From a virus: a stretch of DNA of 30,012 bases. The DNA lies in the UHGV virus genome UHGV-0299922; one strand, 5' to 3'. The notes beneath the pieces are model-generated. The model searched no databases. It was not told the origin of the DNA and saw only the letters and a list, made by a program, of their open reading frames with translations. The position numbers and the translations under genes were made by a program. Every line of letters starts with the position of its first letter. The stretch's first letter is position 1. Shown here one piece after another: positions 11,232-30,012 of this stretch.

Positions 11232-11253
11232 GGCCGCCTGTGCGGCTTTTTTT
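11232..11253 (+). terminator. Terminator-like hairpin between D and E (probable partial terminator/attenuator inside the operon)
   Basis: ggccgc-ctgt-gcggc followed by ttttttt, 14 nt before the E start. Confidence 0.35.
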
Positions 11254-11266
11254 ACGGGATTTTTTT

Positions 11267-12292: not shown

Positions 12293-12294
12293 TC

Positions 12295-12318
12295 ATGGCC
12301 CTTCGGGGCCATTTTCTC
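12295..12318 (+). terminator. Stem-loop immediately after E (atggccc-ttcg-gggccat then T-rich run)
   Basis: Perfect 7-bp stem with a ttcg tetraloop, followed by ttttctctc and the FI ribosome-binding site (ggagg). Confidence 0.35.
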
Positions 12319-12333
12319 TCTGTGGAGGAGTCC

Positions 12334-12729: not shown

Positions 12730-12740
12730 CGGGAGGCGCT

Positions 12741-13094: not shown

Positions 13095-13105
13095 AAGGGG
13101 GATGT

Positions 13106-13684
13106 ATGGCCATAAAAGGTCTTGAGCAGGCCGTTGAAAACCTCAGCCGTATCAGCAGAACGGCGGTGCCCGGTGCCGCCGCAATGGCCATTAACCGCGT
13201 TGCTTCATCCGCGATATCGCAGTCGGCGTCACAGGTTGCCCGTGAGACAAAGGTACGCCGGAAACTGGTAAAGGAAAGGGCCAGGCTGAAAAGGGCCACG
13301 GTCAAAAATCCGCAGGCCAGAATCAGGGTTAACCGGGGGGATTTGCCCGTAATAAAGCTGGGTAACGCGCGGATTGTCCTGTCCCGACGCAGGCGTCGTA
13401 AAAAGGGGCAGCGTTCAGCCCTGAAAGGTGGCGGCAGCGTGCTTGTGGTGGGAAACCGTCGTATTCCCGGCGCGTTTATTCAGCAACTGAAAAATGGCCG
13501 CTGGCATGTCATGCAGCGTGTGGCCGGGAAAAACCGTTACCCCATTGATGTGGTGAAAATCCCGATGGCGGTGCCGCTGACCACGGCGTTTAAACAAAAT
13601 ATTGAGCGGATACGGCGTGAACGTCTTCCGAAAGAGCTGGGCTATGCGCTGCAGCATCAACTGAGGATGGTAATAAAGCGATGA
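13106..13684 (+). CDS. Z: Tail completion protein Z
   Basis: 192 aa, lambda gpZ-like. Confidence 0.95.
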   Translation: MAIKGLEQAVENLSRISRTAVPGAAAMAINRVASSAISQSASQVARETKVRRKLVKERARLKRATVKNPQARIRVNRGDLPVIKLGNARIVLSRRRRRKKGQRSALKGGGSVLVVGNRRIPGAFIQQLKNGRWHVMQRVAGKNRYPIDVVKIPMAVPLTTAFKQNIERIRRERLPKELGYALQHQLRMVIKR

Positions 13685-14076
13685 AACATACTGAACTCCG
13701 TGCAGCCGTACTGGATGCACTGGAGAAGCATGACACCGGGGCGATGTTTTTTGATGGTCGCCCCGCTGTTTTTGATGAGGAAGATTTTCCGGCAATTGCC
13801 GTTTATCTCACCGGCGCTGAATACACGGGCGAAGAGCTGGACAGCGATACCTGGCAGGCGGAGCTGCATATTGAAGTTTTCCTGCCTGCTCAGGTGCCGG
13901 ATTCAGAGCTGGATGCGTGGATGGAGTCCCGGATTTATCCGGTGATGAGCGATATCCCGGCACTGTCAGATTTGATCACCAGTATGGTGGCCAGTGGCTA
14001 TGACTACCGGCGCGACGATGATGCGGGCCTGTGGAGTTCAGCCGATCTGACTTATGTCATTACCTATGAAATGTGA
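13681..14076 (+). CDS. U: Tail terminator protein U
   Basis: 131 aa, [26 protein letters not shown]..; ATGA overlap with Z. Confidence 0.95.
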
Positions 14077-14083
14077 GGACGAT

Positions 14084-14824
14084 ATGCCAACACCAAATCC
14101 TCTGGCACCGGTGAAAGGGGCCGGGACCACACTGTGGGTTTATAACGGGAGCGGCGACCCTTATGCGAATCCGCTTTCAGACGTTGACTGGTCGCGTCTG
14201 GCAAAAGTTAAAGACCTGACGCCCGGCGAACTGACCGCTGAGTCCTATGACGACAGCTATCTCGATGATGAAGATGCAGACTGGACTGCGACCGGGCAGG
14301 GGCAGAAATCCGCCGGAGATACCAGCTTCACGCTGGCGTGGATGCCCGGAGAGCAGGGGCAGCAGGCGCTGCTGGCGTGGTTTAATGAAGGTGATACCCG
14401 TGCCTATAAAATCCGCTTCCCGAACGGCACGGTCGATGTGTTCCGCGGCTGGGTCAGCAGTATCGGTAAGGCGGTGACGGCGAAGGAAGTGATCACCCGC
14501 ACGGTGAAAGTCACCAATGTGGGACGTCCGTCGATGGCAGAAGATCGCAGCACGGTAACAGCGGTAACCGGTATGACCGTGACGCCAGCCAGCGCTTCCG
14601 TAGTGAAAGGGAAGAGCACCACGCTGACCGTGGCATTCCAGCCGGAAGGCGCAACCGACAAGAGCTTCCGTGCGGTGTCAGCGGATAAAACAAAAGCCAC
14701 CGTGTCGGTCAGTGGTATGACCATCACCGTGAATGGCGTTGCTGCAGGCAAGGTCAACATTCCGGTTGTATCCGGTAATGGTGAGTTTGCTGCGGTTGCA
14801 GAAATCACCGTCACCGCCAGTTAA
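14084..14824 (+). CDS. V: Major tail tube protein V (with C-terminal Ig-like domain)
   Basis: ATG 14084 (SD gaggacga) gives [31 protein letters not shown]..; C-terminal third has an Ig-like (Big_2-type) pattern. Confidence 0.95.
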
Positions 14825-14839
14825 TCCGGAGAGTCAGAG

Positions 14840-15262
14840 ATGTTCCTGAAAACCGAATCATTTGAACATAACGGTGTGACCGTCACGCTTTCTGAACTGT
14901 CAGCCCTGCAGCGTATTGAGCATCTCGCCCTGATGAAACGGCAGGCAGAACAGGCGGAGTCAGACAGCAACCGGAAGTTTACTGTGGAAGACGCCATCAG
15001 AACCGGCGCGTTTCTGGTGGCGATGTCCCTGTGGCATAACCATCCGCAGAAGACAAAGCAGCCTTCCATGAATGAAGCCGTTAAACAGATTGAGCAGGAA
15101 GTGCTTACCACCTGGCCCACAGAGGCAATTTCTCATGCTGAAAACGTGGTGTACCGGCTGTCTGGTATGTATGAGTTTGTGGTGAATAATGCCCCTGAAC
15201 AGGCAGAGGACGCCGGGCCCGCAGAGCCTGTTTCTGCGGGAAAGTGTTCGACGGTGAGCTGA
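14840..15262 (+). CDS. G: Tail assembly chaperone G
   Basis: 140 aa, MFLKTESFEHNGVTVTLSELSALQRIEHLALMKRQAEQAE.. Confidence 0.95.
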   Translation: MFLKTESFEHNGVTVTLSELSALQRIEHLALMKRQAEQAESDSNRKFTVEDAIRTGAFLVAMSLWHNHPQKTKQPSMNEAVKQIEQEVLTTWPTEAISHAENVVYRLSGMYEFVVNNAPEQAEDAGPAEPVSAGKCSTVS

Positions 15263-15678
15263 GTTTTGCCCTGAAACTGGCGCGTGAGATGGGGCGACCC
15301 GACTGGCGTGCCATGCTTGCCGGGATGTCATCCACGGAGTATGCCGACTGGCACCGCTTTTACAGTACCCATTATTTTCATGATGTTCTGCTGGATATGC
15401 ACTTTTCCGGGCTGACGTACACCGTGCTCAGCCTGTTTTTCAGCGATCCGGATATGCATCCGCTGGATTTCAGTCTGCTGAACCGGCGCGAGGCTGACGA
15501 AGAGCCTGAAGATGATGTGCTGATGCAGAAAGCGGCAGGGCTTGCCGGAGGTGTCCGCTTTGGCCCGGACGGGAATGAAGTTATCCCTACTTCCCCGGAT
15601 GTGGCGGACATGACGGAGGATGACGCAATGCTGATGACAGTATCAGAAGGGATCGCAGGAGGAGTCCGGTATGGCTGA
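14840..15678 (+). CDS. GT: Tail assembly chaperone G-T fusion, made by -1 frameshift near 15238-15244
   Basis: T-frame ORF 15244..15678 has no convincing independent start and follows the slippery site, as in lambda. Confidence 0.85.
15238..15244 (+). promoter_or_regulatory. Programmed -1 ribosomal frameshift slippery heptamer G GGA AAG (G to GT)
   Basis: G frame reads gcg gga aag; a -1 slip enters the frame of ORF 15244..15678 (T segment). Confidence 0.85.
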
Positions 15679-18232
15679 ACCGGTAGGCGATCTGGTCGTT
15701 GATTTGAGTCTGGATGCGGCCAGATTTGACGAGCAGATGGCCAGAGTCAGGCGTCATTTTTCCGGTACGGAAAGTGATGCGAAAAAAACAGCGGCAGTCG
15801 TTGAACAGTCGCTGAGCCGACAGGCGCTGGCTGCACAGAAAGCGGGGATTTCCGTCGGGCAGTATAAAGCTGCCATGCGTATGCTGCCTGCGCAGTTCAC
15901 TGACGTGGCCACGCAGCTTGCAGGCGGGCAAAGTCCGTGGCTGATCCTGCTGCAACAGGGGGGGCAGGTGAAGGACTCCTTCGGCGGGATGATCCCCATG
16001 TTCAGGGGGCTTGCCGGTGCGATCACCCTGCCGATGGTGGGGGCCACCTCGCTGGCGGTGGCGACCGGTGCGCTGGCGTATGCCTGGTATCAGGGCAACT
16101 CAACCCTGTCCGATTTCAACAAAACGCTGGTCCTTTCCGGTCATCAGTCGGGTCTGACGGCAGATCGTATGCTGGTCCTGTCCAGAGCCGGGCAGGCGGC
16201 AGGGCTGACGTTTAACCAGACCAGCGAGTCACTCAGCGCACTGGTTAAGGCGGGGGTAAGCGGTGAGGCTCAGATTGCGTCCATCAGCCAGAGTGTGGCG
16301 CGTTTCTCCTCTGCATCCGGCGTGGAGGTGGACAAGGTCGCTGAAGCCTTCGGGAAGCTGACCACAGACCCGACGTCGGGGCTGACGGCGATGGCACGCC
16401 AGTTCCATAACGTGACGGCGGAGCAGATTGCGTATGTTGCTCAGTTGCAGCGTTCCGGCGATGAAGCCGGGGCATTGCAGGCGGCGAACGAGGCCGCAAC
16501 GAAAGGGTTTGATGACCAGACCCGCCGCCTGAAAGAGAACATGGGCACGCTGGAGACCTGGGCAGACAGGACTGCGCGGGCATTCAAATCCATGTGGGAT
16601 GCGGTGCTGGATATTGGTCGTCCTGATACCGCGCAGGAGATGCTGATTAAGGCAGAGGCTGCGTTTAAGAAAGCAGACGACATCTGGAATCTGCGCAAGG
16701 ATGATTATTTTGTTAACGATGAAGCGCGGGCGCGTTACTGGGATGATCGTGAAAAGGCCCGTCTTGCGCTTGAAGCCGCCCGAAAGAAGGCTGAGCAGCA
16801 GAGTCAACAGGACAAAAATGCGCAGCAGCAGAGCGATACCGAAGCGTCACGGCTGAAATATACCGAAGAGGCGCAGAAGGCTTACGAACGGCTGCAGACG
16901 CCGCTGGAGAAATATACCGCCCGTCAGGAAGAACTGAACAAGGCACTGAAAGACGGGAAAATCCTGCAGGCAGATTACAACACGCTGATGGCGGCGGCGA
17001 AAAAGGATTATGAAGCGACGCTGAAAAAGCCGAAACAGTCCGGCGTGAAAGTGTCTGCGGGCGATCGTCAGGAAGACAGTGCTCATGCTGCCCTGCTGAC
17101 GCTTCAGGCAGAACTCCGGACGCTGGAGAAGCATGCCGGAGCGAATGAGAAAATCAGCCAGCAGCGCCGGGATTTGTGGAAGGCTGAAAATCAGTTCGCG
17201 GTACTGGAGGAGGCGGCACAACGTCGCCAGCTATCCGCACAGGAGAAATCCCTGCTGGCGCATAAAGATGAGACGCTGGAGTACAAACGCCAGCTGGCTG
17301 CACTTGGCGACAAGGTTACGTATCAGGAGCGCCTGAACGCGCTGGCGCAGCAGGCGGATAAATTCGCACAGCAGCAACGGGCAAAACGGGCCGCCATTGA
17401 TGCGAAAAACCGGGGGCTGACTGACCGGCAGGCAGCGCGGGAAGCCACAGAACAGCGCCTGAAGGAACAGTATGGCGATAATCCTCTGGCGCTGAATAAC
17501 GTCATGTCAGAGCAGAAAAAGACCTGGGCGGCTGAAGACCAGCTTCGCGGGAGCTGGATGGCAGGCCTGAAGTCCGGCTGGAGTGAGTGGGAAGAGAGCG
17601 CCACGGACAGTATGTCGCAGGTTAAAAGTGCAGCCGCGCAGACCTTTGATGGTATTGCGCAGAATATGGCGGCGATGCTGACCGGCAGTGAGCAGAACTG
17701 GCGCAGCTTCACCCGTTCCGTGCTGTCCATGATGACAGAAATTCTGCTTAAGCAGGCAATGGTGGGGATTGTCGGGAGTATCGGCAGCGCCATTGGCGGT
17801 GCTGCCAGTGGTGGAGCATCCGCGTCAGGCGGTACAGCCATTCAGGCCGCTGCGGCGAAATTCCATTTTGCGACCGGGGGATTTACGGGAACCGGCGGCA
17901 AATATGAGCCAGCGGGGATTGTTCACCGTGGTGAATTTGTCTTCACGAAGGAGGCAACCAGCCGGATTGGTGTCGGCAACCTGTACCGCCTGATGCGCGG
18001 CTATGCCACCGGCGGTTATGTCGGTACACCGGGCAGCATGGCAGACAGCCGGTCGCAGGCGTCCGGGACGTTTGAGCAGAATAACCATGTGGTGATTAAC
18101 AACGACGGCACGAACGGGCAGATAGGTCCGGCTGCTCTGAAGGCGGTGTATGACATGGCCCGCAAGGGTGCCCGTGATGAAATTCAGACACAGATGCGTG
18201 ATGGTGGCCTGTTCTCCGGAGGTGGACGATGA
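15671..18232 (+). CDS. H: Tail tape measure protein H
   Basis: 853 aa, lambda gpH-like; overlaps the T segment end. Confidence 0.97.
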   Translation: MAEPVGDLVVDLSLDAARFDEQMARVRRHFSGTESDAKKTAAVVEQSLSRQALAAQKAGISVGQYKAAMRMLPAQFTDVATQLAGGQSPWLILLQQGGQVKDSFGGMIPMFRGLAGAITLPMVGATSLAVATGALAYAWYQGNSTLSDFNKTLVLSGHQSGLTADRMLVLSRAGQAAGLTFNQTSESLSALVKAGVSGEAQIASISQSVARFSSASGVEVDKVAEAFGKLTTDPTSGLTAMARQFHNVTAEQIAYVAQLQRSGDEAGALQAANEAATKGFDDQTRRLKENMGTLETWADRTARAFKSMWDAVLDIGRPDTAQEMLIKAEAAFKKADDIWNLRKDDYFVNDEARARYWDDREKARLALEAARKKAEQQSQQDKNAQQQSDTEASRLKYTEEAQKAYERLQTPLEKYTARQEELNKALKDGKILQADYNTLMAAAKKDYEATLKKPKQSGVKVSAGDRQEDSAHAALLTLQAELRTLEKHAGANEKISQQRRDLWKAENQFAVLEEAAQRRQLSAQEKSLLAHKDETLEYKRQLAALGDKVTYQERLNALAQQADKFAQQQRAKRAAIDAKNRGLTDRQAAREATEQRLKEQYGDNPLALNNVMSEQKKTWAAEDQLRGSWMAGLKSGWSEWEESATDSMSQVKSAAAQTFDGIAQNMAAMLTGSEQNWRSFTRSVLSMMTEILLKQAMVGIVGSIGSAIGGAASGGASASGGTAIQAAAAKFHFATGGFTGTGGKYEPAGIVHRGEFVFTKEATSRIGVGNLYRLMRGYATGGYVGTPGSMADSRSQASGTFEQNNHVVINNDGTNGQIGPAALKAVYDMARKGARDEIQTQMRDGGLFSGGGR

Positions 18233-18558
18233 AGACCTTCCGCTGGAAAGTGAAACCCGGTATGGATGTGGCTTCGGTCCCTTCTGTAAGAAAGGTGCGC
18301 TTTGGTGATGGCTATTCCCAGCGAGCGCCTGCCGGGCTGAATGCCAACCTGAAAACGTACAGCGTGACGCTTTCTGTCCCCCGTGAGGAGGCCACGGTAC
18401 TGGAGTCGTTTCTGGAAGAGCACGGGGGCTGGAAATCCTTTCTGTGGACGCCGCCTTATGAGTGGCGGCAGATAAAGGTGACCTGCGCAAAATGGTCGTC
18501 GCGGGTCAGTATGCTGCGTGTTGAGTTCAGCGCAGAGTTTGAACAGGTGGTGAACTGA
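18229..18558 (+). CDS. M: Tail tip protein M
   Basis: 109 aa, MKTFRWKVKPGMDVASVPSVRKVRFGDGYSQRAPAGLNA.. Confidence 0.95.
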   Translation: MKTFRWKVKPGMDVASVPSVRKVRFGDGYSQRAPAGLNANLKTYSVTLSVPREEATVLESFLEEHGGWKSFLWTPPYEWRQIKVTCAKWSSRVSMLRVEFSAEFEQVVN

Positions 18559-19256
18559 TGCAGGATATCCGGCAGGAAACACTGAATGAATGCACCCGTG
18601 CGGAGCAGTCGGCCAGCGTGGTGCTCTGGGAAATCGACCTGACAGAGGTCGGTGGAGAACGTTATTTTTTCTGTAATGAGCAGAACGAAAAAGGTGAGCC
18701 GGTCACCTGGCAGGGGCGACAGTATCAGCCGTATCCCATTCAGGGGAGCGGTTTTGAACTGAATGGCAAAGGCACCAGTACGCGCCCCACGCTGACGGTT
18801 TCTAACCTGTACGGTATGGTCACCGGGATGGCGGAAGATATGCAGAGTCTGGTCGGCGGAACGGTGGTCCGGCGTAAGGTTTACGCCCGTTTTCTGGATG
18901 CGGTGAACTTCGTCAACGGAAACAGTTACGCCGATCCGGAGCAGGAGGTGATCAGCCGCTGGCGCATTGAGCAGTGCAGCGAACTGAGCGCGGTGAGTGC
19001 CTCCTTTGTACTGTCCACGCCGACGGAAACGGATGGCGCTGTTTTTCCGGGACGTATCATGCTGGCCAACACCTGCACCTGGACCTATCGCGGTGACGAG
19101 TGCGGTTATAGCGGTCCGGCTGTCGCGGATGAATATGACCAGCCAACGTCCGATATCACGAAGGATAAATGCAGCAAATGCCTGAGCGGTTGTAAGTTCC
19201 GCAATAACGTCGGCAACTTTGGCGGCTTCCTTTCCATTAACAAACTTTCGCAGTAA
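18558..19256 (+). CDS. L: Tail tip protein L
   Basis: 232 aa, lambda gpL-like, with C-terminal Cys cluster (..CTWTYRGDECGY..KDKCSKCLSGCKF..). Confidence 0.95.
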   Translation: MQDIRQETLNECTRAEQSASVVLWEIDLTEVGGERYFFCNEQNEKGEPVTWQGRQYQPYPIQGSGFELNGKGTSTRPTLTVSNLYGMVTGMAEDMQSLVGGTVVRRKVYARFLDAVNFVNGNSYADPEQEVISRWRIEQCSELSAVSASFVLSTPTETDGAVFPGRIMLANTCTWTYRGDECGYSGPAVADEYDQPTSDITKDKCSKCLSGCKFRNNVGNFGGFLSINKLSQ

Positions 19257-19261
19257 ATCCC

Positions 19262-20005
19262 ATGACACAGACAGAATCAGCGATTCTGGCGCACGCCCGG
19301 CGATGTGCGCCAGCGGAGTCGTGCGGCTTCGTGGTAAGCACGCCGGAGGGGGAAAGATATTTTCCCTGCGTGAATATCTCCGGTGAGCCGGAGGCGTATT
19401 TCCGTATGTCGCCGGAAGACTGGCTGCAGGCAGAAATGCAGGGTGAGATTGTGGCGCTGGTCCACAGCCACCCCGGTGGTCTGCCCTGGCTGAGTGAGGC
19501 CGACCGGCGGCTGCAGGTGCAGAGTGATTTGCCGTGGTGGCTGGTCTGCCGGGGGACGATTCATAAGTTCCGCTGTGTGCCGCATCTCACCGGGCGGCGC
19601 TTTGAGCACGGTGTGACGGACTGTTACACACTGTTCCGGGATGCTTATCATCTGGCGGGGATTGAGATGCCGGACTTTCATCGTGAGGATGACTGGTGGC
19701 GTAACGGCCAGAATCTCTATCTGGATAATCTGGAGGCGACGGGGCTGTATCAGGTGCCGTTGTCAGCGGCACAGCCGGGCGATGTGCTGCTGTGCTGTTT
19801 TGGTTCATCAGTGCCGAATCACGCCGCAATTTACTGCGGCGACGGCGAGCTGCTGCACCATATTCCTGAACAACTGAGCAAACGAGAGAGGTACACCGAC
19901 AAATGGCAGCGACGCACACACTCCCTCTGGCGTCACCGGGCATGGCGCGCATCTGCCTTTACGGGGATTTACAACGATTTGGTCGCCGCATCGACCTTCG
20001 TGTGA
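19262..20005 (+). CDS. K: Tail tip assembly protein K (MPN/JAMM-like plus NlpC/P60-like domains)
   Basis: 247-aa ORF; JAMM-like HSHPGG motif preceded by a conserved Glu; C-terminal Cys..His pattern of NlpC/P60 type. An internal ATG near 19406 matches the shorter start I recall from the classical lambda annotation. Confidence 0.85.
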   Translation: MTQTESAILAHARRCAPAESCGFVVSTPEGERYFPCVNISGEPEAYFRMSPEDWLQAEMQGEIVALVHSHPGGLPWLSEADRRLQVQSDLPWWLVCRGTIHKFRCVPHLTGRRFEHGVTDCYTLFRDAYHLAGIEMPDFHREDDWWRNGQNLYLDNLEATGLYQVPLSAAQPGDVLLCCFGSSVPNHAAIYCGDGELLHHIPEQLSKRERYTDKWQRRTHSLWRHRAWRASAFTGIYNDLVAASTFV

Positions 20006-20574
20006 AAACGGGGGCTGAAGCCATCCGGGCACTGGCCACACAGCTCCCGGCGTTTCGTCAGAAACTGAGCGACGGCTGGTATCAGGTACGGATTGCCGGG
20101 CGGGACGTCAGCACGTCCGGGTTAACGGCGCAGTTACATGAGACTCTGCCTGATGGCGCTGTGATTCATATTGTTCCCAGAGTCGCCGGGGCCAAGTCAG
20201 GTGGCGTATTCCAGATTGTCCTGGGGGCTGCCGCCATTGCCGGATCATTCTTTACCGCCGGAGCCACCCTTGCAGCATGGGGGGCAGCCATTGGGGCCGG
20301 TGGTATGACCGGCATCCTGTTTTCTCTCGGTGCCAGTATGGTGCTCGGTGGTGTGGCGCAGATGCTGGCACCGAAAGCCAGAACTCCCCGTACACAGACA
20401 ACGGATAACGGTAAGCAGAACACCTATTTCTCCTCACTGGATAACATGGTTGCCCAGGGCAATGTTCTGCCTGTTCTGTACGGGGAAATGCGCGTGGGGT
20501 CACGCGTGGTTTCTCAGGAGATCAGCACGGCAGACGAAGGGGACGGTGGTCAGGTTGTGGTGATTGGTCGCTGA
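19903..20574 (+). CDS. I: Tail tip assembly protein I
   Basis: 223 aa, overlaps the K 3' end in another frame; lambda gpI-like. Confidence 0.93.
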   Translation: MAATHTLPLASPGMARICLYGDLQRFGRRIDLRVKTGAEAIRALATQLPAFRQKLSDGWYQVRIAGRDVSTSGLTAQLHETLPDGAVIHIVPRVAGAKSGGVFQIVLGAAAIAGSFFTAGATLAAWGAAIGAGGMTGILFSLGASMVLGGVAQMLAPKARTPRTQTTDNGKQNTYFSSLDNMVAQGNVLPVLYGEMRVGSRVVSQEISTADEGDGGQVVVIGR

Positions 20575-20634
20575 TGCAAAATGTTTTATGTGAAACCGCC
20601 TGCGGGCGGTTTTGTCATTTATGGAGCGTGAGGA

Positions 20635-23600
20635 ATGGGTAAAGGAAGCAGTAAGGGGCATACCCCGCGCGAAGCGAAGGACAACCTGAAGTCCACGCAG
20701 TTGCTGAGTGTGATCGATGCCATCAGCGAAGGGCCGGTTGAAGGTCCGGTGGATGGATTAAAAAGCGTGCTGCTGAACAGTACGCCGGTGCTGGACACTG
20801 AGGGGAATACCAACATCTCCGGTGTCACGGTGGTGTTCCGTGCCGGTGAGCAGGAGCAGACACCGCCGGAGGGGTTTGAATCCTCCGGCTCCGAGACGGT
20901 GCTGGGTACGGAAGTGAAATATGACACGCCGATCACCCGCACCATTACGTCTGCAAACATCGACCGTCTGCGCTTTACCTTCGGTGTACAGGCACTGGTG
21001 GAAACCACCTCAAAGGGTGACAGGAATCCGTCGGAAGTCCGTCTGCTGGTTCAGATACAACGTAACGGTGGCTGGGTGACGGAAAAAGACATCACCATTA
21101 AGGGCAAAACCACCTCGCAGTATCTGGCCTCGGTGGTGGTGGGTAGCCTGCCGCCGCGCCCGTTTAATATCCGGATGCGCAGGATGACGCCGGACAGCAC
21201 CACAGACCAGCTGCAGAACAAAACGCTCTGGTCGTCATACACCGAAATCATCGATGTGAAACAGTGCTACCCGAACACGGCACTGGTCGGCGTGCAGGTG
21301 GACTCGGAGCAGTTCGGCAGCCAGCAGGTGAGCCGTAATTATCATCTTCGCGGGCGCATTCTGCAGGTGCCGTCGAACTATAACCCGCAGACGCGGCAAT
21401 ACAGCGGTATCTGGGACGGAACGTTTAAGCCGGCATACAGCAACAACCCGGCCTGGTGTCTGTGGGATATGCTGACCCACCCGCGCTACGGCATGGGGAA
21501 ACGTCTTGGTGCGGCGGATGTGGATAAATGGGCGCTGTATGTCATCGGCCAGTACTGCGACCAGTCAGTGCCGGACGGTTTTGGCGGCACGGAGCCGCGC
21601 ATCACCTGTAATGCCTACCTGACCACGCAGCGTAAGGCGTGGGATGTGCTCAGTGATTTCTGCTCGGCGATGCGCTGTATGCCGGTATGGAACGGGCAGA
21701 CGCTGACGTTCGTGCAGGACCGACCATCAGATAAGGTGTGGACCTATAACCGCAGTAATGTGGTGATGCCGGATGATGGCGCGCCGTTCCGCTACAGCTT
21801 CAGCGCCCTGAAGGACCGCCATAATGCCGTTGAGGTGAACTGGATTGACCCGAACAACGGCTGGGAGACGGCGACAGAGCTTGTTGAAGATACGCAGGCC
21901 ATTGCCCGTTACGGTCGTAATGTCACGAAGATGGATGCCTTTGGCTGTACCAGCCGGGGGCAGGCACACCGCGCCGGGCTGTGGCTGATTAAAACGGAAC
22001 TGCTGGAGACGCAGACCGTGGATTTCAGCGTGGGTGCTGAAGGGCTTCGCCATGTACCGGGCGATGTCATTGAAATCTGCGATGATGACTATGCCGGTAT
22101 CAGCACCGGTGGTCGCGTGCTGGCGGTGAACAGCCAGACCCGGACGCTGACGCTCGACCGTGAAATCACGCTGCCATCCTCCGGTACCACGCTGATAAGC
22201 CTGGTTGACGGAAGTGGTAATCCGGTCAGCGTGGAGGTTCAGCCCGTCACCGACGGACTTAAGGTGAAAGTGAACCGGGTTCCTGATGGCGTTGCAGAAT
22301 ACAGTGTGTGGGGGCTGAAGTTGCCGACGTTGCGTCAGCGCCTGTTCCGCTGTGTGAGTATCCGTGAGAACGATGACGGCACGTATGCCATCACTGCCGT
22401 GCAGCATGTACCGGAAAAAGAAGCCATCGTGGATAACGGGGCGCACTTTGACGGCGACCAGAGCAGCACGGTGAATGGTGTCACGCCGCCAGCGGTGCAG
22501 CACCTGACCGCCGAAGTCACCGCAGACAGCGGGGAATATCAGGTGCTGGCGCGCTGGGACACGCCGAAGGTGGTGAAGGGCGTGAGCTTCCTGCTCCGTC
22601 TGACCGTAACAGCGGATGACAGCAGTGAGCGGCTGGTCAGCACGGCCCGGACGACGGAAACCACATACCGCTTCACGCAACTGGCGCTGGGGAACTACAG
22701 GCTGACAGTCCGGGCGGTAAATGCGTGGGGGCAGCAGGGCGATCCGGCGTCGGTATCGTTCCGGATTGCCGCACCGGCAGCACCGTCGAGGATTGAGCTG
22801 ACGCCGGGCTATTTTCAGATAACCGCCACGCCGCATCTTGCCGTTTATGACCCGACGGTACAGTTTGAGTTCTGGTTCTCGGAAAAGCGGATTACCGATA
22901 TCAGGCAGGTTGAAACCACAGCACGCTATCTTGGCACGGCGCTGTACTGGATAGCCGCCAGTATCAATATCAAACCGGGCCATGATTATTACTTTTATAT
23001 CCGCAGTGTGAACACCGTTGGCAAATCGGCATTCGTGGAGGCTGTTGGTCAGCCGAGTGATGATGCATCCGGTTATCTGGATTTTTTCAAAGGCGAGATA
23101 GGGAAAACCCATCTGGCTCAGGAGCTGTGGACGCAGATTGATAACGGTCAGCTTGCGCCTGACCTGGCTGAAATCAGGACGTCCATTACGGATGTCAGCA
23201 ATGAAATCACGCAGACCGTCAATAAGAAACTGGAAGACCAGAGTGCGGCAATTCAGCAGATACAGAAGGTTCAGGTTGATACAAATAATAACCTGAACAG
23301 CATGTGGGCTGTGAAGCTGCAGCAGATGCAGGACGGACGCCTTTATATCGCGGGTATTGGTGCCGGTATTGAGAACACCCCTGACGGCATGCAGAGTCAG
23401 GTGCTGCTGGCGGCAGACAGGATTGCGATGATTAATCCTGCGAATGGCAACACAAAGCCGATGTTTGTTGGGCAGGGCGATCAGATATTCATGAACGAAG
23501 TGTTCCTGAAACGCCTGACGGCTCCCACCATTACCAGCGGCGGTAATCCTCCGGTATTTTCCCTGACACCGGACGGGCGGCTGACGGCGAAAAATGCCGA

Positions 23601-24114
23601 TATCAGCGGTAACGTGAATGCGAACTCCGGGACGCTCAACAACGTCACGATTAACGAGAACTGTCGGGTTCTGGGAAAACTGTCCGCCAACCAGATTGAA
23701 GGCGATCTCGTTAAAACAGTGGGCAAAGCTTTCCCCCGGGACTCCCGTGCACCGGAACGGTGGCCATCAGGGACCATCACCGTCAGGGTTTATGACGATC
23801 AGCCGTTTGACCGGCAGATTGTTATTCCGGCGGTGGCATTCAGCGGCGCTAAACATGAGCGGGAGAATAACGATATTTATTCGTCATGCCGCCTGATAGT
23901 ACGGAAAAACGGTGCTGAAATTTATAACCGTACCGCGCTGGATAATACGCTGATTTACAGTGGTGTTATTGATATGCCTGCCGGTCACGGTCACATGACA
24001 CTGGAGTTTTCGGTGTCAGCATGGCTGGTAAATAACTGGTATCCCACAGCAAGTATCAGCGATTTGCTGGTTGTGGTGATGAAGAAAGCCACTGCAGGCA
24101 TCACGATTAGCTGA
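20635..24114 (+). CDS. J: Central tail fibre / host specificity protein J
   Basis: 1159 aa, SD ggagcgtgagga before the ATG; lambda gpJ-like N-terminus ([34 protein letters not shown]..) with fibronectin-III-like repeats in the middle. Confidence 0.95.
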
Positions 24115-24133
24115 ATTTTATAACCCAGATACG

Positions 24134-24158
24134 GGCGCCAGAAATGGCGCCTTTTTTA
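24134..24158 (+). terminator. Intrinsic terminator after J
   Basis: ggcgcc-agaaat-ggcgcc followed by tttttt. Confidence 0.7.
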
Positions 24159-24181
24159 TTGCAGAAAAGCGAGAGGTAATT

Positions 24182-24781
24182 ATGCGTAAATTATGTGCTG
24201 TTATTTTGTCCGCAGCCATCTGTCTGTCCGTATCCGGTGCGCCTGCATGGGCGTCTGAACATCAGTCCACACTGAGCGCAGGGTATCTTCATGCCCGTAC
24301 GAACGCTCCCGGCAGCGATAATCTGAACGGGATTAACGTGAAATACCGTTATGAGTTTACGGACACGCTGGGGCTGATTACGTCCTTCAGTTATGCCAAT
24401 GCTGAGGATGAGCAAAAAACGCACTACAGCGATACCCGCTGGCATGAAGATTCCGTGCGTAACCGCTGGTTCAGCGTGATGGCAGGGCCGTCTGTGCGCG
24501 TGAATGAATGGTTCAGCGCGTATGCGATAGCGGGTATGGCTTACAGCCGTGTGTCGACCTTCTCCGGGGATTATCTCCGCGTAACTGACAACAAGGGGAA
24601 AACGCACGATGTGCTGACCGGAAGTGATGACGGTCGCCACAGCAACATGTCTCTGGCGTGGGGGGCTGGCGTGCAGTTTAACCCGACCGAATCCGTGGCC
24701 ATTGATATTGCTTATGAAGGCTCCGGCAGTGGTGACTGGCGCACTGCCGGTTTCATCGTGGGTGTCGGTTATAAGTTCTGA
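24182..24781 (+). CDS. lom: Lom outer-membrane protein (Ail/Lom/PagC family), lysogenic-conversion moron
   Basis: 199 aa with signal peptide (MRKLCAVILSAAICLSVSGAPAWA) and C-terminal ..GVGYKF; lambda Lom-like. Confidence 0.93.
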   Translation: MRKLCAVILSAAICLSVSGAPAWASEHQSTLSAGYLHARTNAPGSDNLNGINVKYRYEFTDTLGLITSFSYANAEDEQKTHYSDTRWHEDSVRNRWFSVMAGPSVRVNEWFSAYAIAGMAYSRVSTFSGDYLRVTDNKGKTHDVLTGSDDGRHSNMSLAWGAGVQFNPTESVAIDIAYEGSGSGDWRTAGFIVGVGYKF

Positions 24782-24807
24782 TTAGCCAGGTAACACAGTG
24801 TTATGAC

Positions 24808-24836
24808 AGCCCGCCGGTTCAGGCGGGCTTTTTTGT
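24808..24836 (+). terminator. Intrinsic terminator after lom
   Basis: agcccgcc-ggttcag-gcgggct followed by ttttttg. Confidence 0.7.
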
Positions 24837-24845
24837 GGGGGGAAT

Positions 24846-27815
24846 ATGGCAGTACGGATTTCAGGTGTACTGAAAGATGGCGCAGGTAAGCCGATACAAA
24901 ACTGCACCATTCAGCTAAAGGCCAGGCGCAACAGCACCACGGTGGTGGTGAACACAGTGGCCTCAGAAAACCCGGATGAAGCCGGGCGTTACAGCATGGA
25001 CGTTGAGTACGGTCAGTACAGCGTTATTCTGTTGGTGGAAGGATTCCCGCCGTCACATGCCGGGATCATCACCGTGTATGAAGATTCCCAACCCGGTACG
25101 CTGAATGATTTTCTCGGTGCCATGACGGAGGATGATGCCCGTCCTGAGGCACTGCGCCGTTTTGAACTGATGGTGGAAGAGGTGGCGCGTAACGCGTCCG
25201 CAGTGGCACAGAACACGGCAGCCGCGAAGAAGTCAGCCGGCGATGCCGGCACATCTGCCCGTGAGGCGGCAACCCATGCGACTGATGCTGCAGGCTCAGC
25301 ACGCGCAGCCAGCACGTCAGCCGGACAGGCCGCTTCGTCGGCTCAGTCAGCGTCTTCCAGCGCAGGAACGGCATCAACAAAGGCCACTGAGGCATCGAAA
25401 AGTGCTGCTGCTGCAGAGTCCTCAAAAAGCGCGGCAGCTACCAGTGCCAGTGCCGCGAAAACGTCAGAAACGAATGCTGCAGCGTCACAACAATCAGCAG
25501 CCACTTCTGCATCCACCGCGACTACGAAAGCGTCAGAAGCTGCCACCTCAGCCCGGGATGCGGCGGCTTCAAAAGAGGCGGCAAAATCATCAGAAACGAA
25601 CGCATCCTCGAGCGCCAGTAGCGCAGCTTCCTCGGCAACGGCGACAGCAAATTCTGCGAAGGCGGCCAAAACGTCCGAGACGAACGCCAGGTCTTCTGAA
25701 ACGGCAGCGGGACAGAGTGCCTCAGCTGCGGCAGGCTCAAAAACAGCGGCTGCGTCGTCTGCCAGTGCCGCGTCAACAAGTGCCGGGCAGGCCTCAGCCA
25801 GTGCCACCGCCGCCGGAAAATCGGCAGAAAGCGCCGCATCATCCGCTTCAACAGCCACAACGAAGGCTGGCGAAGCCACTGAGCAAGCCACTGCAGCAGC
25901 GAGGTCTGCTTCTGCAGCAAAAACCTCTGAAACAAATGCAAAGACTTCAGCAGACAATGCTGCTTCCTCTAAGGCGGCAGCCGCATCGTCCGCTGGTTCA
26001 GCGGCGTCATCGGCATCATCTGCGTCTGCTTCAAAAGATGAGGCGACCAGACAAGCGTCAGCAGCGAAAGGTAGTGCCACGACAGCAACAACGAAAGCAT
26101 CAGAGGCGGCAGGCAGTGCGACGGCTGCATCTCAGAGCAAAGTTGCTGCTGAATCCGCGGCAACGCGTGCCGAAACAGCGGCAAAACGGGCAGAGGATAT
26201 TGCTGATGCCGTATCTCTGGAAGATGCGAGTACGACGAAAAAAGGTGTGGTTCAGCTTAGTAGTGCAACCAACAGCACGTCTGAAACGCAGGCTGCAACG
26301 CCGAAAGCAGTAAAGGCAGCATATGACCTTGCTAACGCAAAATATACCGCTCAGGGCGCAACGACGGCACGAAAAGGGATAGTTCAGCTCAGTAGCGCCA
26401 CTAACAGCCCGTCTGAAACGCTGGCTGCGACACCAAAAGCGGTTAAGGCGGTAATGGATGAAACGAACAAGAAAGCGCCCTTAAATAGTCCTGCACTGAC
26501 CGGAACGCCAACAACGCCAACTGCGCCAAAAGGTACTAATAATACTCAGATCGCAAGTACGGCTTATGTGATGGCCGCGATTGCCGCCCTTGTAGACTCG
26601 TCGCCTGACGCACTGAATACGCTGAACGAGTTAGCGGCGGCGCTGGGCAACGACCCGAATTTTGCGACCACCATGACTAACGCGCTTGCGGGTAAGCAAC
26701 CGAAAGATGCCACCCTGACGGCGCTGGCCGGGCTTGCTACTGCGGCAGACAGGTTTCCGTATTTTACGGGGAATGATGTCGCCAGCCTGGCAACCCTGAC
26801 AAAAGTCGGGCGGGATATTCTTGCGAAATCGACCGTTGCTGCCGTTATCGAATACCTCGGTTTACAGGAAACGGTAAATCAGGCTTCTGGCGCATTACAG
26901 AAAAACCAGAACGGCGCAGATATTCCGGGAAAAGATACCTTCACCAAAAACATTGGTGCCTGCCGCGCATATAGCGCATGGCTGAATATTGGTGGCGATA
27001 GTCAGGTCTGGACAACTGCGCAATTTATTTCGTGGCTGGAGAGTCAGGGGGCATTTAACCATCCTTACTGGATGTGCAAAGGCTCATGGGCTTATGCAAA
27101 TAATAAGGTTATTACAGATACAGGTTGCGGAAATATTTGTCTTGCAGGTGCTGTGGTGGAAGTTATTGGCACTCGCGGCGCAATGACCATACGCGTTACT
27201 ACGCCGAGCACGTCCAGCGGTGGCGGAATTACTAACGCTCAATTCACTTATATTAATCATGGTGATGCTTACGCTCCTGGCTGGCGACGAGACTACAACA
27301 CGAAAAACCAGCAGCCTGCATTTGCTTTAGGGCAAACAGGACGCAGGGTCGCAAATGATAAAGCTGTTGGCTGGAACTGGAATAGCGGTGTTTATGATGC
27401 AGATATCAGTGGTGCATCGACATTAATCCTCCACTTCAATATGAATGCGGGGAGTTGCCCTGCTGTACAGTTCCGCGTGAATTACAGGAACGGCGGTATT
27501 TTTTATCGTTCAGCGCGTGATGGTTATGGCTTTGAAGCTAACTGGTCAGAGTTTTACACCACAACACGCAAACCCTCTGCGGGGGATGTTGGTGCATATA
27601 CGCAGGCAGAATGTAACTCAAGGTTTATTACAGGTATTCGCCTTGGCGGTCTGTCATCTGTTCAGACATGGAAAGGCCCCGGCTGGTCTGACAGGTCAGG
27701 TTATGTCGTTACGGGTTCAGTTAACGGAAACCGTGATGAATTAATTGATACAACTCAGGCAAGGCCAATTCAGTATTGCATTAATGGGACGTGGTATAAC
27801 GCGGGGAGTATTTAA
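24846..27815 (+). CDS. stf: Side tail fibre Stf; constant N-terminal part plus currently expressed variable C-terminal part
   Basis: 989 aa; lambda Stf-like N-terminus (MAVRISGVLKDGAGKPIQNCTIQLKARRNSTTVVVNTV..), long Ala/Ser-rich repeat region, conserved ..VIEYLG.. junction coinciding with the recombination site, C-terminus ..IQYCINGTWYNAGSI. Confidence 0.93.
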   Translation: MAVRISGVLKDGAGKPIQNCTIQLKARRNSTTVVVNTVASENPDEAGRYSMDVEYGQYSVILLVEGFPPSHAGIITVYEDSQPGTLNDFLGAMTEDDARPEALRRFELMVEEVARNASAVAQNTAAAKKSAGDAGTSAREAATHATDAAGSARAASTSAGQAASSAQSASSSAGTASTKATEASKSAAAAESSKSAAATSASAAKTSETNAAASQQSAATSASTATTKASEAATSARDAAASKEAAKSSETNASSSASSAASSATATANSAKAAKTSETNARSSETAAGQSASAAAGSKTAAASSASAASTSAGQASASATAAGKSAESAASSASTATTKAGEATEQATAAARSASAAKTSETNAKTSADNAASSKAAAASSAGSAASSASSASASKDEATRQASAAKGSATTATTKASEAAGSATAASQSKVAAESAATRAETAAKRAEDIADAVSLEDASTTKKGVVQLSSATNSTSETQAATPKAVKAAYDLANAKYTAQGATTARKGIVQLSSATNSPSETLAATPKAVKAVMDETNKKAPLNSPALTGTPTTPTAPKGTNNTQIASTAYVMAAIAALVDSSPDALNTLNELAAALGNDPNFATTMTNALAGKQPKDATLTALAGLATAADRFPYFTGNDVASLATLTKVGRDILAKSTVAAVIEYLGLQETVNQASGALQKNQNGADIPGKDTFTKNIGACRAYSAWLNIGGDSQVWTTAQFISWLESQGAFNHPYWMCKGSWAYANNKVITDTGCGNICLAGAVVEVIGTRGAMTIRVTTPSTSSGGGITNAQFTYINHGDAYAPGWRRDYNTKNQQPAFALGQTGRRVANDKAVGWNWNSGVYDADISGASTLILHFNMNAGSCPAVQFRVNYRNGGIFYRSARDGYGFEANWSEFYTTTRKPSAGDVGAYTQAECNSRFITGIRLGGLSSVQTWKGPGWSDRSGYVVTGSVNGNRDELIDTTQARPIQYCINGTWYNAGSI
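25190..26200 (+). repeat. Low-complexity Ala/Ser/Thr-rich tandem-repeat region inside stf (recurring AAKTSETNA-type units)
   Basis: Repeated peptide units (SAAKTSETNAAAS, AAKSSETNASSS, AAKTSETNARSS, SAAKTSETNAKTS, TTKASEA..) visible in the translation; this also generates long spurious ORFs in other frames and on the opposite strand. Confidence 0.8.
26845..26870 (+). other. Gin/Pin-family crossover site (gix/pix-like), left boundary of the invertible segment, inside stf
   Basis: ttatcgaatacctcggtttacaggaa; its reverse complement ttcctgtaaaccgaggtattcgataa has the TTCCTGTAAACC-GA-GGT... organisation I recall for Mu gix. A 25-nt core is an exact inverted repeat of 29890..29914. Confidence 0.8.
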
Positions 27816-27817
27816 CG

Positions 27818-28351
27818 ATGATGCACTTAAAAAACATTACTGCTGGCAACCCTAAAACAAAAGAGCAATACCAGCTAACAAAGCAATTTAACATCAAATG
27901 GCTTTATTCAGATGATGGAAAAAACTGGTATGAGGAACAAAAGAATTTCCAGCCAGACACTTTGAAAATGGTCTATGACCATAACGGCGTTATTATTTGT
28001 ATTGAAAAGGATGTTTCAGCAATTAATCCAGAGGGTGCAAGCGTCGTTGAATTACCTGATATTACAGCAAATCGCCGGGCTGATATTTCGGGGAAATGGA
28101 TGTTCAAAGATGGCGTAGTGATAAAGCGAACTTATACCGAGGAAGAGCAGAGGCAACAAGCGGAAAATGAAAAGCAAAGCCTGTTGCAACTTGTCAGGGA
28201 TAAAACCCAGCTATGGGACTCACAGCTACGGCTGGGCATCATTTCCGACGAGAATAAACAAAAATTAACCGAGTGGATGCTCTATGCGCAGAAAGTCGAA
28301 TCTACAGACACTTCCGGCCTGCCAGTAACGTTTCCCGAACAACCAGAATGA
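27818..28351 (+). CDS. tfa: Tail fibre assembly chaperone Tfa (copy in the expressed orientation)
   Basis: 177 aa, [40 protein letters not shown]..; starts 2 nt after the stf stop. Confidence 0.9.
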   Translation: MMHLKNITAGNPKTKEQYQLTKQFNIKWLYSDDGKNWYEEQKNFQPDTLKMVYDHNGVIICIEKDVSAINPEGASVVELPDITANRRADISGKWMFKDGVVIKRTYTEEEQRQQAENEKQSLLQLVRDKTQLWDSQLRLGIISDENKQKLTEWMLYAQKVESTDTSGLPVTFPEQPE

Positions 28352-28379
28352 GAGAAGGCCCGCTATCGGGCCTTAATTT

Positions 28380-28907
28380 TTACTCTGGTTTTTGTGGCCA
28401 TTCAGGATTTGCCGTATCCACACGGCTGACCAGAACACTGTAGCGTTCCCATGCTTCCAGTCGTGTGCGTTCCTCGTCTGTTGCCATATTCAGCCTGACA
28501 GCGCGTTCCAGCGGTTGGATGACTGATTCAGCTTCGGAAAGCAATGCGGCCTTTTGTGATTCGGCCTGTTGTTGTTGCTCGTCTGCCGTATAAATCCGTT
28601 TAACCACAGCTCCGTCCCTAAACATCCACTTACCGGAATCATCAGCGCGGCGGTTGGCTGTAATATCTGGAACCTCAACGACGCTATAACCTTCAGGGTT
28701 AAGCGTGGAGGCATCTTTGGTGATGGCGACAATAATATTATTTGCATCGTAAACAATCTTTATTGTGTCTGGCTGAAAGTTTTTCACTTCCTCATACCAG
28801 TTTTTTCCGTCTTCGGACCATAACCAGATAACATCAAAATTCTTTGTTAGCTGATATTGTTCTTTTGTTTTTGGATTTCCAGACTTAATATTTTTTAAAT
28901 GCTGCAT
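28380..28907 (-). CDS. tfa: Alternative tail fibre assembly chaperone Tfa' (inverted copy)
   Basis: 175 aa, [40 protein letters not shown]..; conserved N-terminal half and divergent C-terminal half relative to the plus-strand Tfa. Confidence 0.9.
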
Positions 28908-28910
28908 AAA

Positions 28911-29914
28911 TTACACCTGTACGACGTTATACCATGTGCCATTGATGTATTTTTGTATTGGTCTGAATACTGCCGGATCATCGCCATCAACTGCACCGAT
29001 AATGCCAAGCCCCGTAATTGCATGACCTGATTTCTCATACATCACGCCTTTTTGCATAGTCTGAACAACACGTGTACCAAGTCGGACATCTCTCACATAA
29101 CGTGAGTCAAAATTACCATAATTGCCGGGAATAACTTGCGCACCGCAAAGCCAGTTGCCATTGTTGTCCATGTACGCCTGACCATCGGTGCCATTGGCTG
29201 TCCTTGAGTTATTAATCATGTAGATGCCAAATTGCTTATTCCCCAGTCCACCAATCATAAATTTGCGATCAGCGTGGTCCTGACGAAGTAATGCCTGCGC
29301 ACCATCGGTGGATACCGCATTGCGTCCCAAAATAACATTCTGGTCACGCATATGAATCCACATGCCGGTACTACTGTTAATTGCAAAACGGTTTGCAAAT
29401 ATATCCCCTGTAACATCAAGACCATGCCCCATGCTTATCCGACCAGTTCTGAGATTAAGCGTAAAGGGGCGTAGTGGCCCTATATCACCATTTTCTCCCT
29501 CATTCTCTCGTGTAGGGATGATATGCAGGCATTCTTCAGAACGACGAAAAATAGCACCAAAAGATGAATTAAATATCCTCAGTGCATTGACTGTCGATAT
29601 TTTTACTTCACTGCTGAAAAGGGCTTTAACAAGGACAGACAAAGCATCCCATTTAAGAGTCATCAGGTCTTTTGTTGTGGTGCTCTGGCGGCTTCTCCAT
29701 TTGAAATATTCATTGCCGTTGTCGCCTGTTTCAAACCACATGTATGAATCAGTGTCGCTGTCGGCATTATTTTTAAAACCAATCTTTGCCCAGTCAGTAT
29801 TTCTAATCCAGGCAAGGATTGAGTCGTTTTCAAAAGTAAGCCCACCGGACAAGGTATCGCCATTCTTTTGCACGGCGTTCCTGGCCCTGTTTACCGTTTC
29901 CTGTAAACCGAGGT
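28911..29914 (-). CDS. Alternative Stf variable C-terminal segment (Sv'), promoterless and startless in this orientation; would fuse to the Stf constant part on inversion
   Basis: Minus-strand frame open from 29914 to stop at 28911; reads NLGLQETVNRARNAVQKNGDTLSGG.., i.e. the same LGLQETVN junction as in stf, with an in-frame stop immediately upstream of the crossover site. Ends ..IQKYINGTWYNVVQV. Confidence 0.8.
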
Positions 29915-29923
29915 TTTAGATAA
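29898..29923 (+). other. Gin/Pin-family crossover site (gix/pix-like), right boundary of the invertible segment
   Basis: ttcctgtaaaccgaggttttagataa, near-identical to the Mu gix sequence as I recall it; inverted relative to 26845..26870. Confidence 0.8.
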
Positions 29924-29977
29924 TGGCGGTTTCTGGCCTGCATGGCATGATTTGTGCTTTTGGACGGGAGATTCAGC

Positions 29978-30012
29978 GTGCTGATTGGCTATGTAAGGGT
30001 ATCAACAAATGA
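29978..30012 (+). CDS. pin: Serine DNA invertase (Pin/Gin/Cin/Hin family), 5' end only; runs off the window
   Basis: GTG start with SD gggag 7 nt upstream; encodes (M)LIGYVRVSTND.., the conserved invertase N-terminus including the catalytic-Ser region. Confidence 0.8.
   Translation, partial: MLIGYVRVSTN

Follow-up and report, generated by a model that had tools for sequence, protein, structure and literature searches.

The invertible fibre segments of e14, Mu and P2-type prophages invert continuously in culture (PMC4272514), and the enzyme that inverts them may come from elsewhere in the cell: PinQ and PinR invert the P segment of e14, which lies in another prophage (PMC12529663). According to those passages of PMC12529663 that cite earlier work, PinE inverts the G segment of Mu, and Fin, the invertase of Fels-2, inverts the H segment of Salmonella. 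Alternative fibre tips on a lambda-type tail have been described for the lambdoid phage LLS, which has lambda-like tail proteins, two opposed side tail fibre genes and a DNA invertase, and for which the authors deduced a tip switching like that of Mu and P1 (PMC12315714). Here, we analyzed a stretch of 30,012 nucleotides of the virus genome UHGV-0299922 (in the following called the window), in which the side tail fibre gene stf of a lambda-type tail module leads into two alternative fibre tips and the beginning of an invertase gene. Positions 26845-29923 hold a true invertible segment of the Gin type, orthologous to the G segment of Mu and inserted into stf of a lambda-like Escherichia coli prophage. 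Its neighbouring invertase gene is a truncated stub in all close relatives examined, while the segment itself is found in both orientations in natural genomes.

The two recombination sites are 26-mers in inverted orientation, one of which lies inside stf. They are embedded in longer repeat arms (26841-26878 and 29890-29927; 38 nt, 92% complementary) that share a perfect stretch of 24 bp. When a degenerate 26-mer built from both sites was used for a scan with up to three mismatches, exactly two matches were found in the window, compared to 0.00 expected from 100 shuffles. The left site differs from Mu gix at two positions and the right site at one. Every mismatch is located in the outer half-site, and the central TC dinucleotide is common to the left site, the right site and Mu gix. 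A shufflon was considered and rejected in view of the presence of only two sites in the window (up to three mismatches) and of a recombinase remnant of the serine type rather than of the tyrosine type of Rci. Between the sites, two cassettes, each composed of a fibre tip and its chaperone, are opposed to each other. Tip A is joined to the constant part of Stf (residues 1-675), which stays in the same place in both orientations, and the reading frame of the silent tip B is open as far as the right site. The junction peptide LGLQETVN is encoded at both ends of the segment. In-silico inversion of 26858-29910 converted the Stf protein of 989 amino acids into an intact one of 1003 amino acids with the frame kept, and an intact Stf of 1003 amino acids is also annotated in the flipped copy of strain BS15R-A. 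The stf open reading frames (ORFs) of the flipped natural copies are intact as well, encoding 959 or 1003 amino acids.

The relationship to the classical systems is close. At the DNA level, the 3-kb segment is 94% identical to its counterparts in D108, PhiR68_1 and P88, 92-93% to those of Mu and P7 and 89% to that of P1; the value for SfMu falls within the range of 92-94%. Identity to Mu begins only at 26842, i.e., at the left gix site. The amino acid sequence of tip A is 96.5% identical to the C-terminal part of Mu S' and 87.6% to P1 Sv', and its chaperone is 97% identical to Mu U'. For the chaperone of tip B, the identity amounts to 98% with P1 U and to 94% with Mu U, while tip B itself shares 70% identity with the variable part of Mu S. 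The segment is present in at least 178 complete E. coli genomes. Thus, most of what the original prediction had stated for this locus was borne out: the two inverted gix-like sites of 26 bp are present, the two tips with cognate Tfa chaperones in opposite orientations agree with the ORFs, the Pfam domains and the identities to Mu and P1, the in-frame swap with LGLQETVN on both sides is reproduced in silico and in BS15R-A, and a host-range segment of the Mu G and P1 C kind is indeed attached to a lambda tail module. Of the features that make up a segment of the Gin/Cin/Pin type, inverted gix-type sites, an in-frame exchange of the C-terminus and two opposed tip and chaperone cassettes were found, as were, between isolates, both orientations generated by precise exchange at the sites. 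In the close relatives examined, no intact gene for a serine invertase with a full Resolvase domain and HTH_7 adjoins the segment.

The invertase gene had been predicted to start at 29978, and the GTG at this position does align with the GTG start of Mu gin. As only 35 nt of the ORF are inside the window, its downstream sequence was read in relatives. Contig L006 (GCA_025294495.1), which encodes the exact gpJ of the window, is 99.99% identical to 10635-30012 (19.4 kb, two mismatches) and extends 889 bp beyond the window end. In this contig, the ORF starting at 29978 reads VLIGYVRVSTNDQ...VVWKLD and is terminated by TGA after codon 64, where Mu Gin has Arg65. The stop codon is followed by approximately 12 codons resembling pinE and cin (LGHCMRHLVVLV), by the last 30 or so codons of a tfa gene and, on the opposite strand, by a gene for a GGDEF diguanylate cyclase. 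The 64-codon product covers only positions 2-73 of the 145 positions of the Resolvase profile and shows no helix-turn-helix domain in Pfam, while full-length PinR shows both. It possesses the N-terminal VRVSTNDQ motif of Gin-subfamily invertases and ends at residue 64, so that the usual length of about 185-200 amino acids, helix E and the C-terminal helix-turn-helix are missing. The identical product (WP_001378636.1) or a variant with a single residue exchanged was encoded in every close relative examined, and the stub was found in prophages at three sites, namely at att-lambda, near prfC (CT30) and at the Rac site (NCTC9699). One 64-amino-acid member of the same protein cluster (90% identity) occurs on at least 999 contigs. 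Among relatives at least 99% identical, no full-length invertase was seen at the position of the stub. As its predicted product is without half of the catalytic domain and without the DNA-binding domain, the ORF at 29978 is not expected to encode a working invertase, and from the relatives it can be inferred that the genome of the window itself carries the stub. The start of the gene was hence correctly predicted, while the gene as such is a 64-codon remnant in the nearest relatives; a self-contained system with a working neighbour invertase, which the prediction implied, is contradicted by L006 and by all other close relatives examined.

Because the same stub is present in every close relative at three integration sites, the stub::tfa junction arose once and then spread among lambdoid prophages. 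At the Rac site of NCTC9699 (L004, 11479-12484), a full-length pinR gene lies on the opposite strand within 220 bp after the stub and tfa fragment. This arrangement suggests that a Mu-type segment together with the 5' end of gin was grafted into a locus of the stfR-tfaR-pinR type and that the junction then spread to the prophages at att-lambda and near prfC. The GGDEF gene (L006, 19744-20267; L001, 9879-11210) is located between the stub and attR, where it replaces the lambda b region as cargo; it also occurs in att-lambda prophages without invertible segment. A search for the stub junction in a collection with one genome per species gave a single match, a 2.5-kb contig (L046, JAEWTL010000008.1) of a metagenome-assembled genome labelled Bacillota, which is probably misbinned E. 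coli prophage DNA.

To determine the orientation of the segment in nature, flipped junctions were built in silico and used to search 5,426 complete E. coli genomes, where the left one was found at 99.9% identity. At att-lambda and in the same context of stub, tfa fragment and GGDEF gene, 64 complete genomes harbored the segment as in the window and 26 harbored it flipped, in line with the predicted occurrence of both orientations, which was confirmed here between isolates. About 30 further flipped copies were detected in other downstream contexts, and the viral contigs of IMG/VR with the same stub junction comprised 12 in window orientation and 6 flipped ones. Twelve flipped and six window-orientation loci at att-lambda were inspected, with C2 as a seventh of the latter kind. 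Half of the flipped loci (6/12) were complete, the other half were truncated by the insertion sequence IS1 and lacked the left site. In all flipped copies, the outer half-sites had not moved.

Pairs of flipped and unflipped prophages were compared over 12.5 kb from the stub to moaA. PEC1003 (flipped) and 63-2 showed no single nucleotide polymorphism (SNP), PSS-13 (flipped) and 13C1065T one, 2018-02-2CC (flipped) and PSS-16 four, and the flipped PSJ-14, EC529 and ETEC6 differed from X14-3 by two to five. The four lineages holding these pairs are approximately 20 to 250 SNPs apart from each other. PEC1003, from sewage in Pakistan, and 63-2, from a broiler chicken in China, are identical over about 25 kb save the precise gix-to-gix inversion, with 0 SNPs in the left flank of 9,359 nt and 0 in the re-inverted segment of 3,053 nt. 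Both share the stub variant WP_206050173.1, which occurred only there among the loci examined. Since all copies share one unique stub::tfa junction, the truncation predates the split into orientations. By parsimony, at least four precise gix-to-gix inversions took place after the invertase had been truncated.

Some copies have lost the ability to switch. IS1 removed the left gix site and the constant part of stf in YSP8-1, ET474, PSJ-14, EC529, TUM2820 and SL124. These six copies (of the first seven flipped copies found at att-lambda) are certainly frozen in one orientation and were not counted alone as evidence of flipping. Many of the remnants at att-lambda (L007-L012, L020, L022) are heavily decayed, with the segment fused by IS1 either to lysis genes or to head genes of the P22 type. 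Genome annotation calls the flipped stf gene an incomplete pseudogene or splits it in two (L014, i.e., PEC1003, and L013, L015 and L018), although translation of the genes annotated in this way yielded intact ORFs of 959 amino acids. In the IMG/VR contig L033, which has the window orientation, tip B is represented by a different allele of 347 amino acids whose start resembles tip A, and the inverted repeat (8629-8723 and 11787-11881) comprises 95 nt (92%) instead of 38 nt. Because of this allele, tip cassettes appear to have been exchanged between copies of the module.

The downstream part of the gene, whose completion had been proposed along with a search for its enhancer, turned out to be a stub in the relatives, but one that has kept an enhancer-homologous stretch. 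The position of the enhancer was taken from the record of P1, in which the Cin enhancer is annotated at coding nucleotides 19-90 of cin, and from the published description of the Hin enhancer, a 65-bp element within the invertase gene at a distance of about 100 bp from hix (PMC3798978). Compared to Mu gin, the stub is identical from the gix site to coding nucleotide 117 and approximately 97% identical up to nucleotide 192. Nucleotides 19-90, which correspond to about 29996-30067 and thus lie mostly past the window end, show 100% identity to Mu gin, compared to 76% to the cin enhancer and to pinE. Two matches to the Fis consensus, with a spacing of 48 bp between their centres at +30 and +78, lie about as far from the gix centre (100 bp) as the Hin enhancer does from hix. 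As judged from the sequence, the cis-acting parts, i.e., the two sites and a presumed Fis-dependent enhancer, are intact, and only the enzyme is missing.

Taken together, we consider it likely, with a probability of roughly three in four, that this locus is an orphan switch of the Mu G type in stf of a lambda-like prophage, whose own invertase is dead, whose enhancer-bearing stub has been kept and which is flipped in trans. Recombination between the inverted gix sites would join Stf residues 1-675 to either tip A or tip B, each with its own chaperone, and the exchange of tips would switch the receptor specificity. Because the adjoining invertase is reduced to a stub of 64 codons that could not supply the enzyme, the segment would be unable to flip itself. 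The stub sequence may still provide the cis-acting Fis-dependent enhancer, while a serine invertase of the Gin/Cin/PinE or the PinR/PinQ type would act in trans from a co-resident prophage, a plasmid or a superinfecting phage. We infer both the catalysis in trans and a functional enhancer.

Possible sources of the enzyme were sought by adding 3' parts of invertases, which the stub does not contain (five probes: gin, cin, pinE, pinR and the invertase of phage 520873) to the flipped-junction query and by counting the extra matches per record. The count is indirect, as it covers chromosomes only, has the sensitivity of megablast (approximately at least 85% nucleotide identity to the five probes) and does not name the enzyme. 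At least one invertase 3' part was present elsewhere on the chromosome in 21 of 25 flipped genomes; in 11 of the 25 it was of the Gin/Cin/PinE type, and in 10 only a PinR/Q-type part was found. Within the complete E. coli genomes, 3,827 of 5,426 contained at least one such part. In PEC1003 (NZ_CP160643.1), none of the five probes matched the chromosome at megablast level. The segment of this strain may have been flipped in an ancestor, or by an enzyme from a plasmid or a transient infection.

Other explanations have to be weighed against that of an orphan switch. If the ORF at 29978 continued past the window as an intact, cis-acting Gin-type invertase, the segment would be an autonomous switch in the style of Mu and P1. 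Functional gin-type genes begin with the very 35 nt that the window contains, and a full-length invertase gene does adjoin the homologous segment of Mu, of SfMu and of the P2-like phage 520873. An intact gene is, however, very unlikely considering that the almost identical L006 stops at codon 64 and runs into the tfa fusion, that the same stub is shared by the relatives at all three integration sites, and that relatives seen at an identity of at least 99% carried no full gene there. It might also be argued that the switch is a fossil, locked since its invertase was lost, and that the orientations either predate this loss or have been spread anew among prophages by homologous recombination. The unique stub::tfa junction, which places the truncation before the split into orientations, is at odds with the first of these possibilities, and an imported flipped segment would not leave 0 SNPs over 25 kb. 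Orientation moreover differs between isolates that are only 0-5 SNPs apart in four lineages, one of them marked by its own stub variant. Even though several flipped copies were frozen by IS1 and some flipped genomes are without detectable invertase, as one would expect of a fossil, we regard this explanation as unlikely.

Inversion might furthermore proceed without any site-specific invertase, by RecA-dependent homologous recombination between the 38-nt inverted repeats. A length of 24 bp, which is that of the perfect stretch within the repeats, is near the lower limit for efficient RecA-mediated exchange and counts against this route. The same is true for the four or more flips between near-identical genomes, which imply a high rate relative to point mutation, and for the nature of the repeats, which are canonical gix sites beside an intact enhancer homologue. 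The crossover can be mapped only to within the perfect stretch, and PEC1003 flipped with no detectable invertase would be accommodated, but on balance the RecA route is highly improbable. That the differences in orientation are assembly artefacts is scarcely credible: assemblers can be misled by inverted repeats and have to settle on one orientation if the population is mixed, yet a repeat of 38 nt is shorter than any sequencing read, the complete genomes originate from many laboratories, both junctions are flipped consistently within the same records, and a mixed population would itself show flipping.

Several points weigh against the orphan switch, too. The function of the enhancer was deduced from sequence identity alone, and the window ends 35 nt into the ORF, the truncation being read from relatives. 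The differences in orientation are known between isolates and not within a single culture. Regarding the enzyme, megablast detected a Gin/Cin/PinE-type gene in only 11 of the 25 flipped genomes, four (ET474, PSJ-14, PEC1003 and 74-2) are without any candidate on their chromosomes at this sensitivity, the count depends on an indirect measure (the change in matches per record) restricted to chromosomes, and the activity of PinR and PinQ has been demonstrated on e14 sites, not on gix. The original prediction had stated that a disrupted invertase gene combined with the lack of a trans-acting invertase in the host would speak against it. The invertase is disrupted in the relatives, but a lack of trans-acting enzymes does not hold in general, since the segment has kept flipping.

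Table 1. Features of the invertible segment and the adjacent tail genes in the window
Feature	Position	Strand	Remarks
J	20635-24114		
Lom	24182-24781		PF06316
stf ORF	24846-27815	+	989 aa; constant part 24846-26844
Left gix site	26845-26870	+	26-mer TTATCGAATACCTCGGTTTACAGGAA, inside stf; TC crossover dinucleotide at 26857-26858
Tip A	26871-27815	+	Stf C-terminus joined in window orientation; Mu S' / G(-) type
tfa	27818-28351	+	Chaperone for tip A (Mu U' type), 177 aa; PF02413 Caudo_TAP
GC-rich hairpin and T run	28355-28374	.	Between the convergent tfa genes; consensus scan only
tfa'	28380-28907	-	Chaperone for tip B (Mu/P1 U type), 175 aa; PF02413; silent in window orientation
Tip B	28911-29897	-	Alternative Stf C-terminus, silent in window orientation; carries PF21446
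Right gix site	29898-29923	-	26-mer TTATCTAAAACCTCGGTTTACAGGAA; central dinucleotide at 29910-29911
Spacer	29924-29977	+	Right gix site to invertase GTG; homologous to region upstream of Mu gin
Gin-type invertase remnant	29978-30012	+	First 35 nt in window; GTG start

The positions of the main features are listed in Table 1. The homology of the spacer was determined by alignment with Mu gin and the invertase of phage 520873. The hairpin between the convergent tfa genes is probably a terminator, predicted by a scan that was overall no richer in matches than shuffled sequences. In a promoter scan of the window, matches were no more frequent than in shuffles, and no promoter is claimed.

The surroundings of the segment are those of a lambda-type phage. 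The gene order J-lom-stf-tfa, the N-terminus of Stf with PF08400 and the PF02413 chaperone are all as in a lambda-type Stf/Tfa module. In Stf, Pfam assigned PF08400 to residues 1-134 (E value 3.9e-72), and PF03406 was found as well; the constant part is composed of the lambda-type N-terminal domain, a repeat region rich in Ala, Ser and Thr, and fibre repeats. The remainder of the sequence corresponds to a late region of the lambda type, coding for a porin, lysozyme, Rz, Rha, Nu1, gpA, a portal protein of the lambda family, an S49 protease, capsid protein E and tail proteins. This region is approximately 97% identical to isolated lambdoid phages, e.g., PhiR70_1, Kati and mEp332, and the best complete E. 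coli genomes are about 97.5% identical to the window over 25 kb. No protein identical to the exact Stf product of the window is on record. In the relatives, the prophage resides at att-lambda, with the core GCTTTTTTATACTAA adjoining ybhB-bioA. The OmpC/NmpC-type porin gene (PF00267, E value 5.6e-157) is located at 216-1373 on the minus strand, upstream of the lysis genes; the Rha-family gene lies at 3162-3929 and a DUF1398 gene at 4232-4684. These three genes are typical lambdoid cargo unconnected with the switch.

Within the fibre shaft, two direct repeat units with a spacing of 132 bp were identified at 26240-26449 (78 nt aligned at 82%). The Stf proteins of relatives are 44 amino acids shorter than that of the window (945 versus 989; 959 versus 1003 when flipped). 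Because this difference equals one 132-bp unit, it suggests that the shaft varies in the copy number of its repeats. The long stretch from 25220 to 26130 is Ala/Ser/Thr-rich and of low complexity; it contains numerous short, degenerate repeats, e.g., AAKTSETNA, and is overlapped by several long spurious ORFs on both strands. The last 350 or so nucleotides of the stf constant part (26500-26845) also match the fibre gene of the P2-like phage 520873, whose left site has the same outer half-site, TTATCGAATACC. Mosaic joints are clustered around the recombination site.

Neither an invertible fibre on a lambda-type tail (LLS, PMC12315714) nor inversion in trans across prophages (PMC12529663) is new, and no new mechanism is put forward here. 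Such an architecture is not unusual among lambdoid prophages, considering the presence of the segment in at least 178 complete E. coli genomes and the published account of a lambda-tailed phage whose fibre is invertible (PMC12315714). Phages 520873 and 503458 were tried as lambdoid cases with a full invertase and discarded, both being P2-like. What is added is that this common module is an orphan that has kept an enhancer-bearing stub and has continued to flip in natural isolates. It would be a natural example of a prophage host-range switch now dependent on the recombinases of other mobile elements, and cross-prophage inversion, as known from the action of PinQ and PinR on e14, would thereby extend to a fibre of the lambda type that hundreds of E. 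coli genomes carry. Tentatively, and with some doubt on our side, it can be envisaged as a widespread 'slave' phase-variable switch run by whichever Pin-family invertase is in the cell, so that flipping would be tied to the resident mobilome. If the stub is indeed kept for its enhancer, a coding gene would have been reduced to a cis-regulatory element. PEC1003, flipped and with no detectable invertase, leaves room for an unrecognised catalyst. Because fibre chimeras of e14 block the adsorption of phage T2 (PMC12529663), it is conceivable that orphan switches might serve the host as switchable receptor masks. The module also offers a testable system for studying the cross-reactivity between invertases and sites and a possible requirement for the enhancer that has been kept.

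There are practical consequences for genome annotation as well. A "recombinase family protein" of 64 amino acids beside such fibres is a dead stub. Flipped stf genes marked as pseudogenes by the annotation pipeline PGAP are intact, a phase state having been misread as gene decay, and strain-to-strain differences at stf are phase states, not gene loss.

Compared to the known systems, the locus combines traits of different origin. With the stf-tfa region of lambda (Ur-lambda), it shares the order J-lom-stf-tfa, the PF08400 N-terminus of Stf and the Caudo_TAP chaperone. To our knowledge, the fibre of lambda itself is limited to one tip, and neither gix sites nor an invertase accompany it. The Salmonella H segment (Hin, Fin) is likewise a Gin-family switch that can be flipped in trans by a prophage invertase, as far as the passages of PMC12529663 and PMC4272514 citing this work convey, and its enhancer is situated at a distance of about 100 bp from the site, within the gene of the invertase (PMC3798978), but it controls a flagellin promoter instead of a fibre coding sequence and its Hin is intact. 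LLS differs, by its published description, in the reported invertase gene and in its fibres, which are described as having no relatives among other reported phages (PMC12315714). The P segment of e14 is likewise a fibre segment of an E. coli prophage; it is flipped by invertases of other prophages (PMC12529663; PMC4272514), as is proposed for the segment described here, and both orientations are common among sequenced strains. By contrast, e14 retains its own invertase PinE, while no cis invertase is found beside segments of the window type; the e14 sites were not found within seven mismatches of Mu gix, and its neighbour genes are of the baseplate type, as opposed to J-lom-stf of lambda.

The C segments of P1 and P7 with Cin belong to the same family. 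That of P7 aligns in one piece at 92.6%, the tip B chaperone is 98% identical to P1 U, and the enhancer is annotated in the 5' part of cin. However, in P1 the cin gene is on the other side, with its 3' end adjoining cixL, Cin is intact, and the cix sites differ at five to seven positions. The closest resemblance is to the G segment of Mu with Gin, and also to those of D108 and SfMu: the sites are one to two mismatches apart and have the same central dinucleotide, the DNA identity amounts to 92-94%, the order of sites is the same, a distance of about 68 nt separates the 5' end of the invertase gene from the right site, and there is no difference in the enhancer-homologous region. What separates the two is the constant part, which is a lambda-type Stf on a siphovirus tail in the window and that of S on a contractile tail in Mu, furthermore tip B, which is only 70% identical to Mu S, and finally the invertase itself, a stub of 64 codons in place of the 193 amino acids of Gin.

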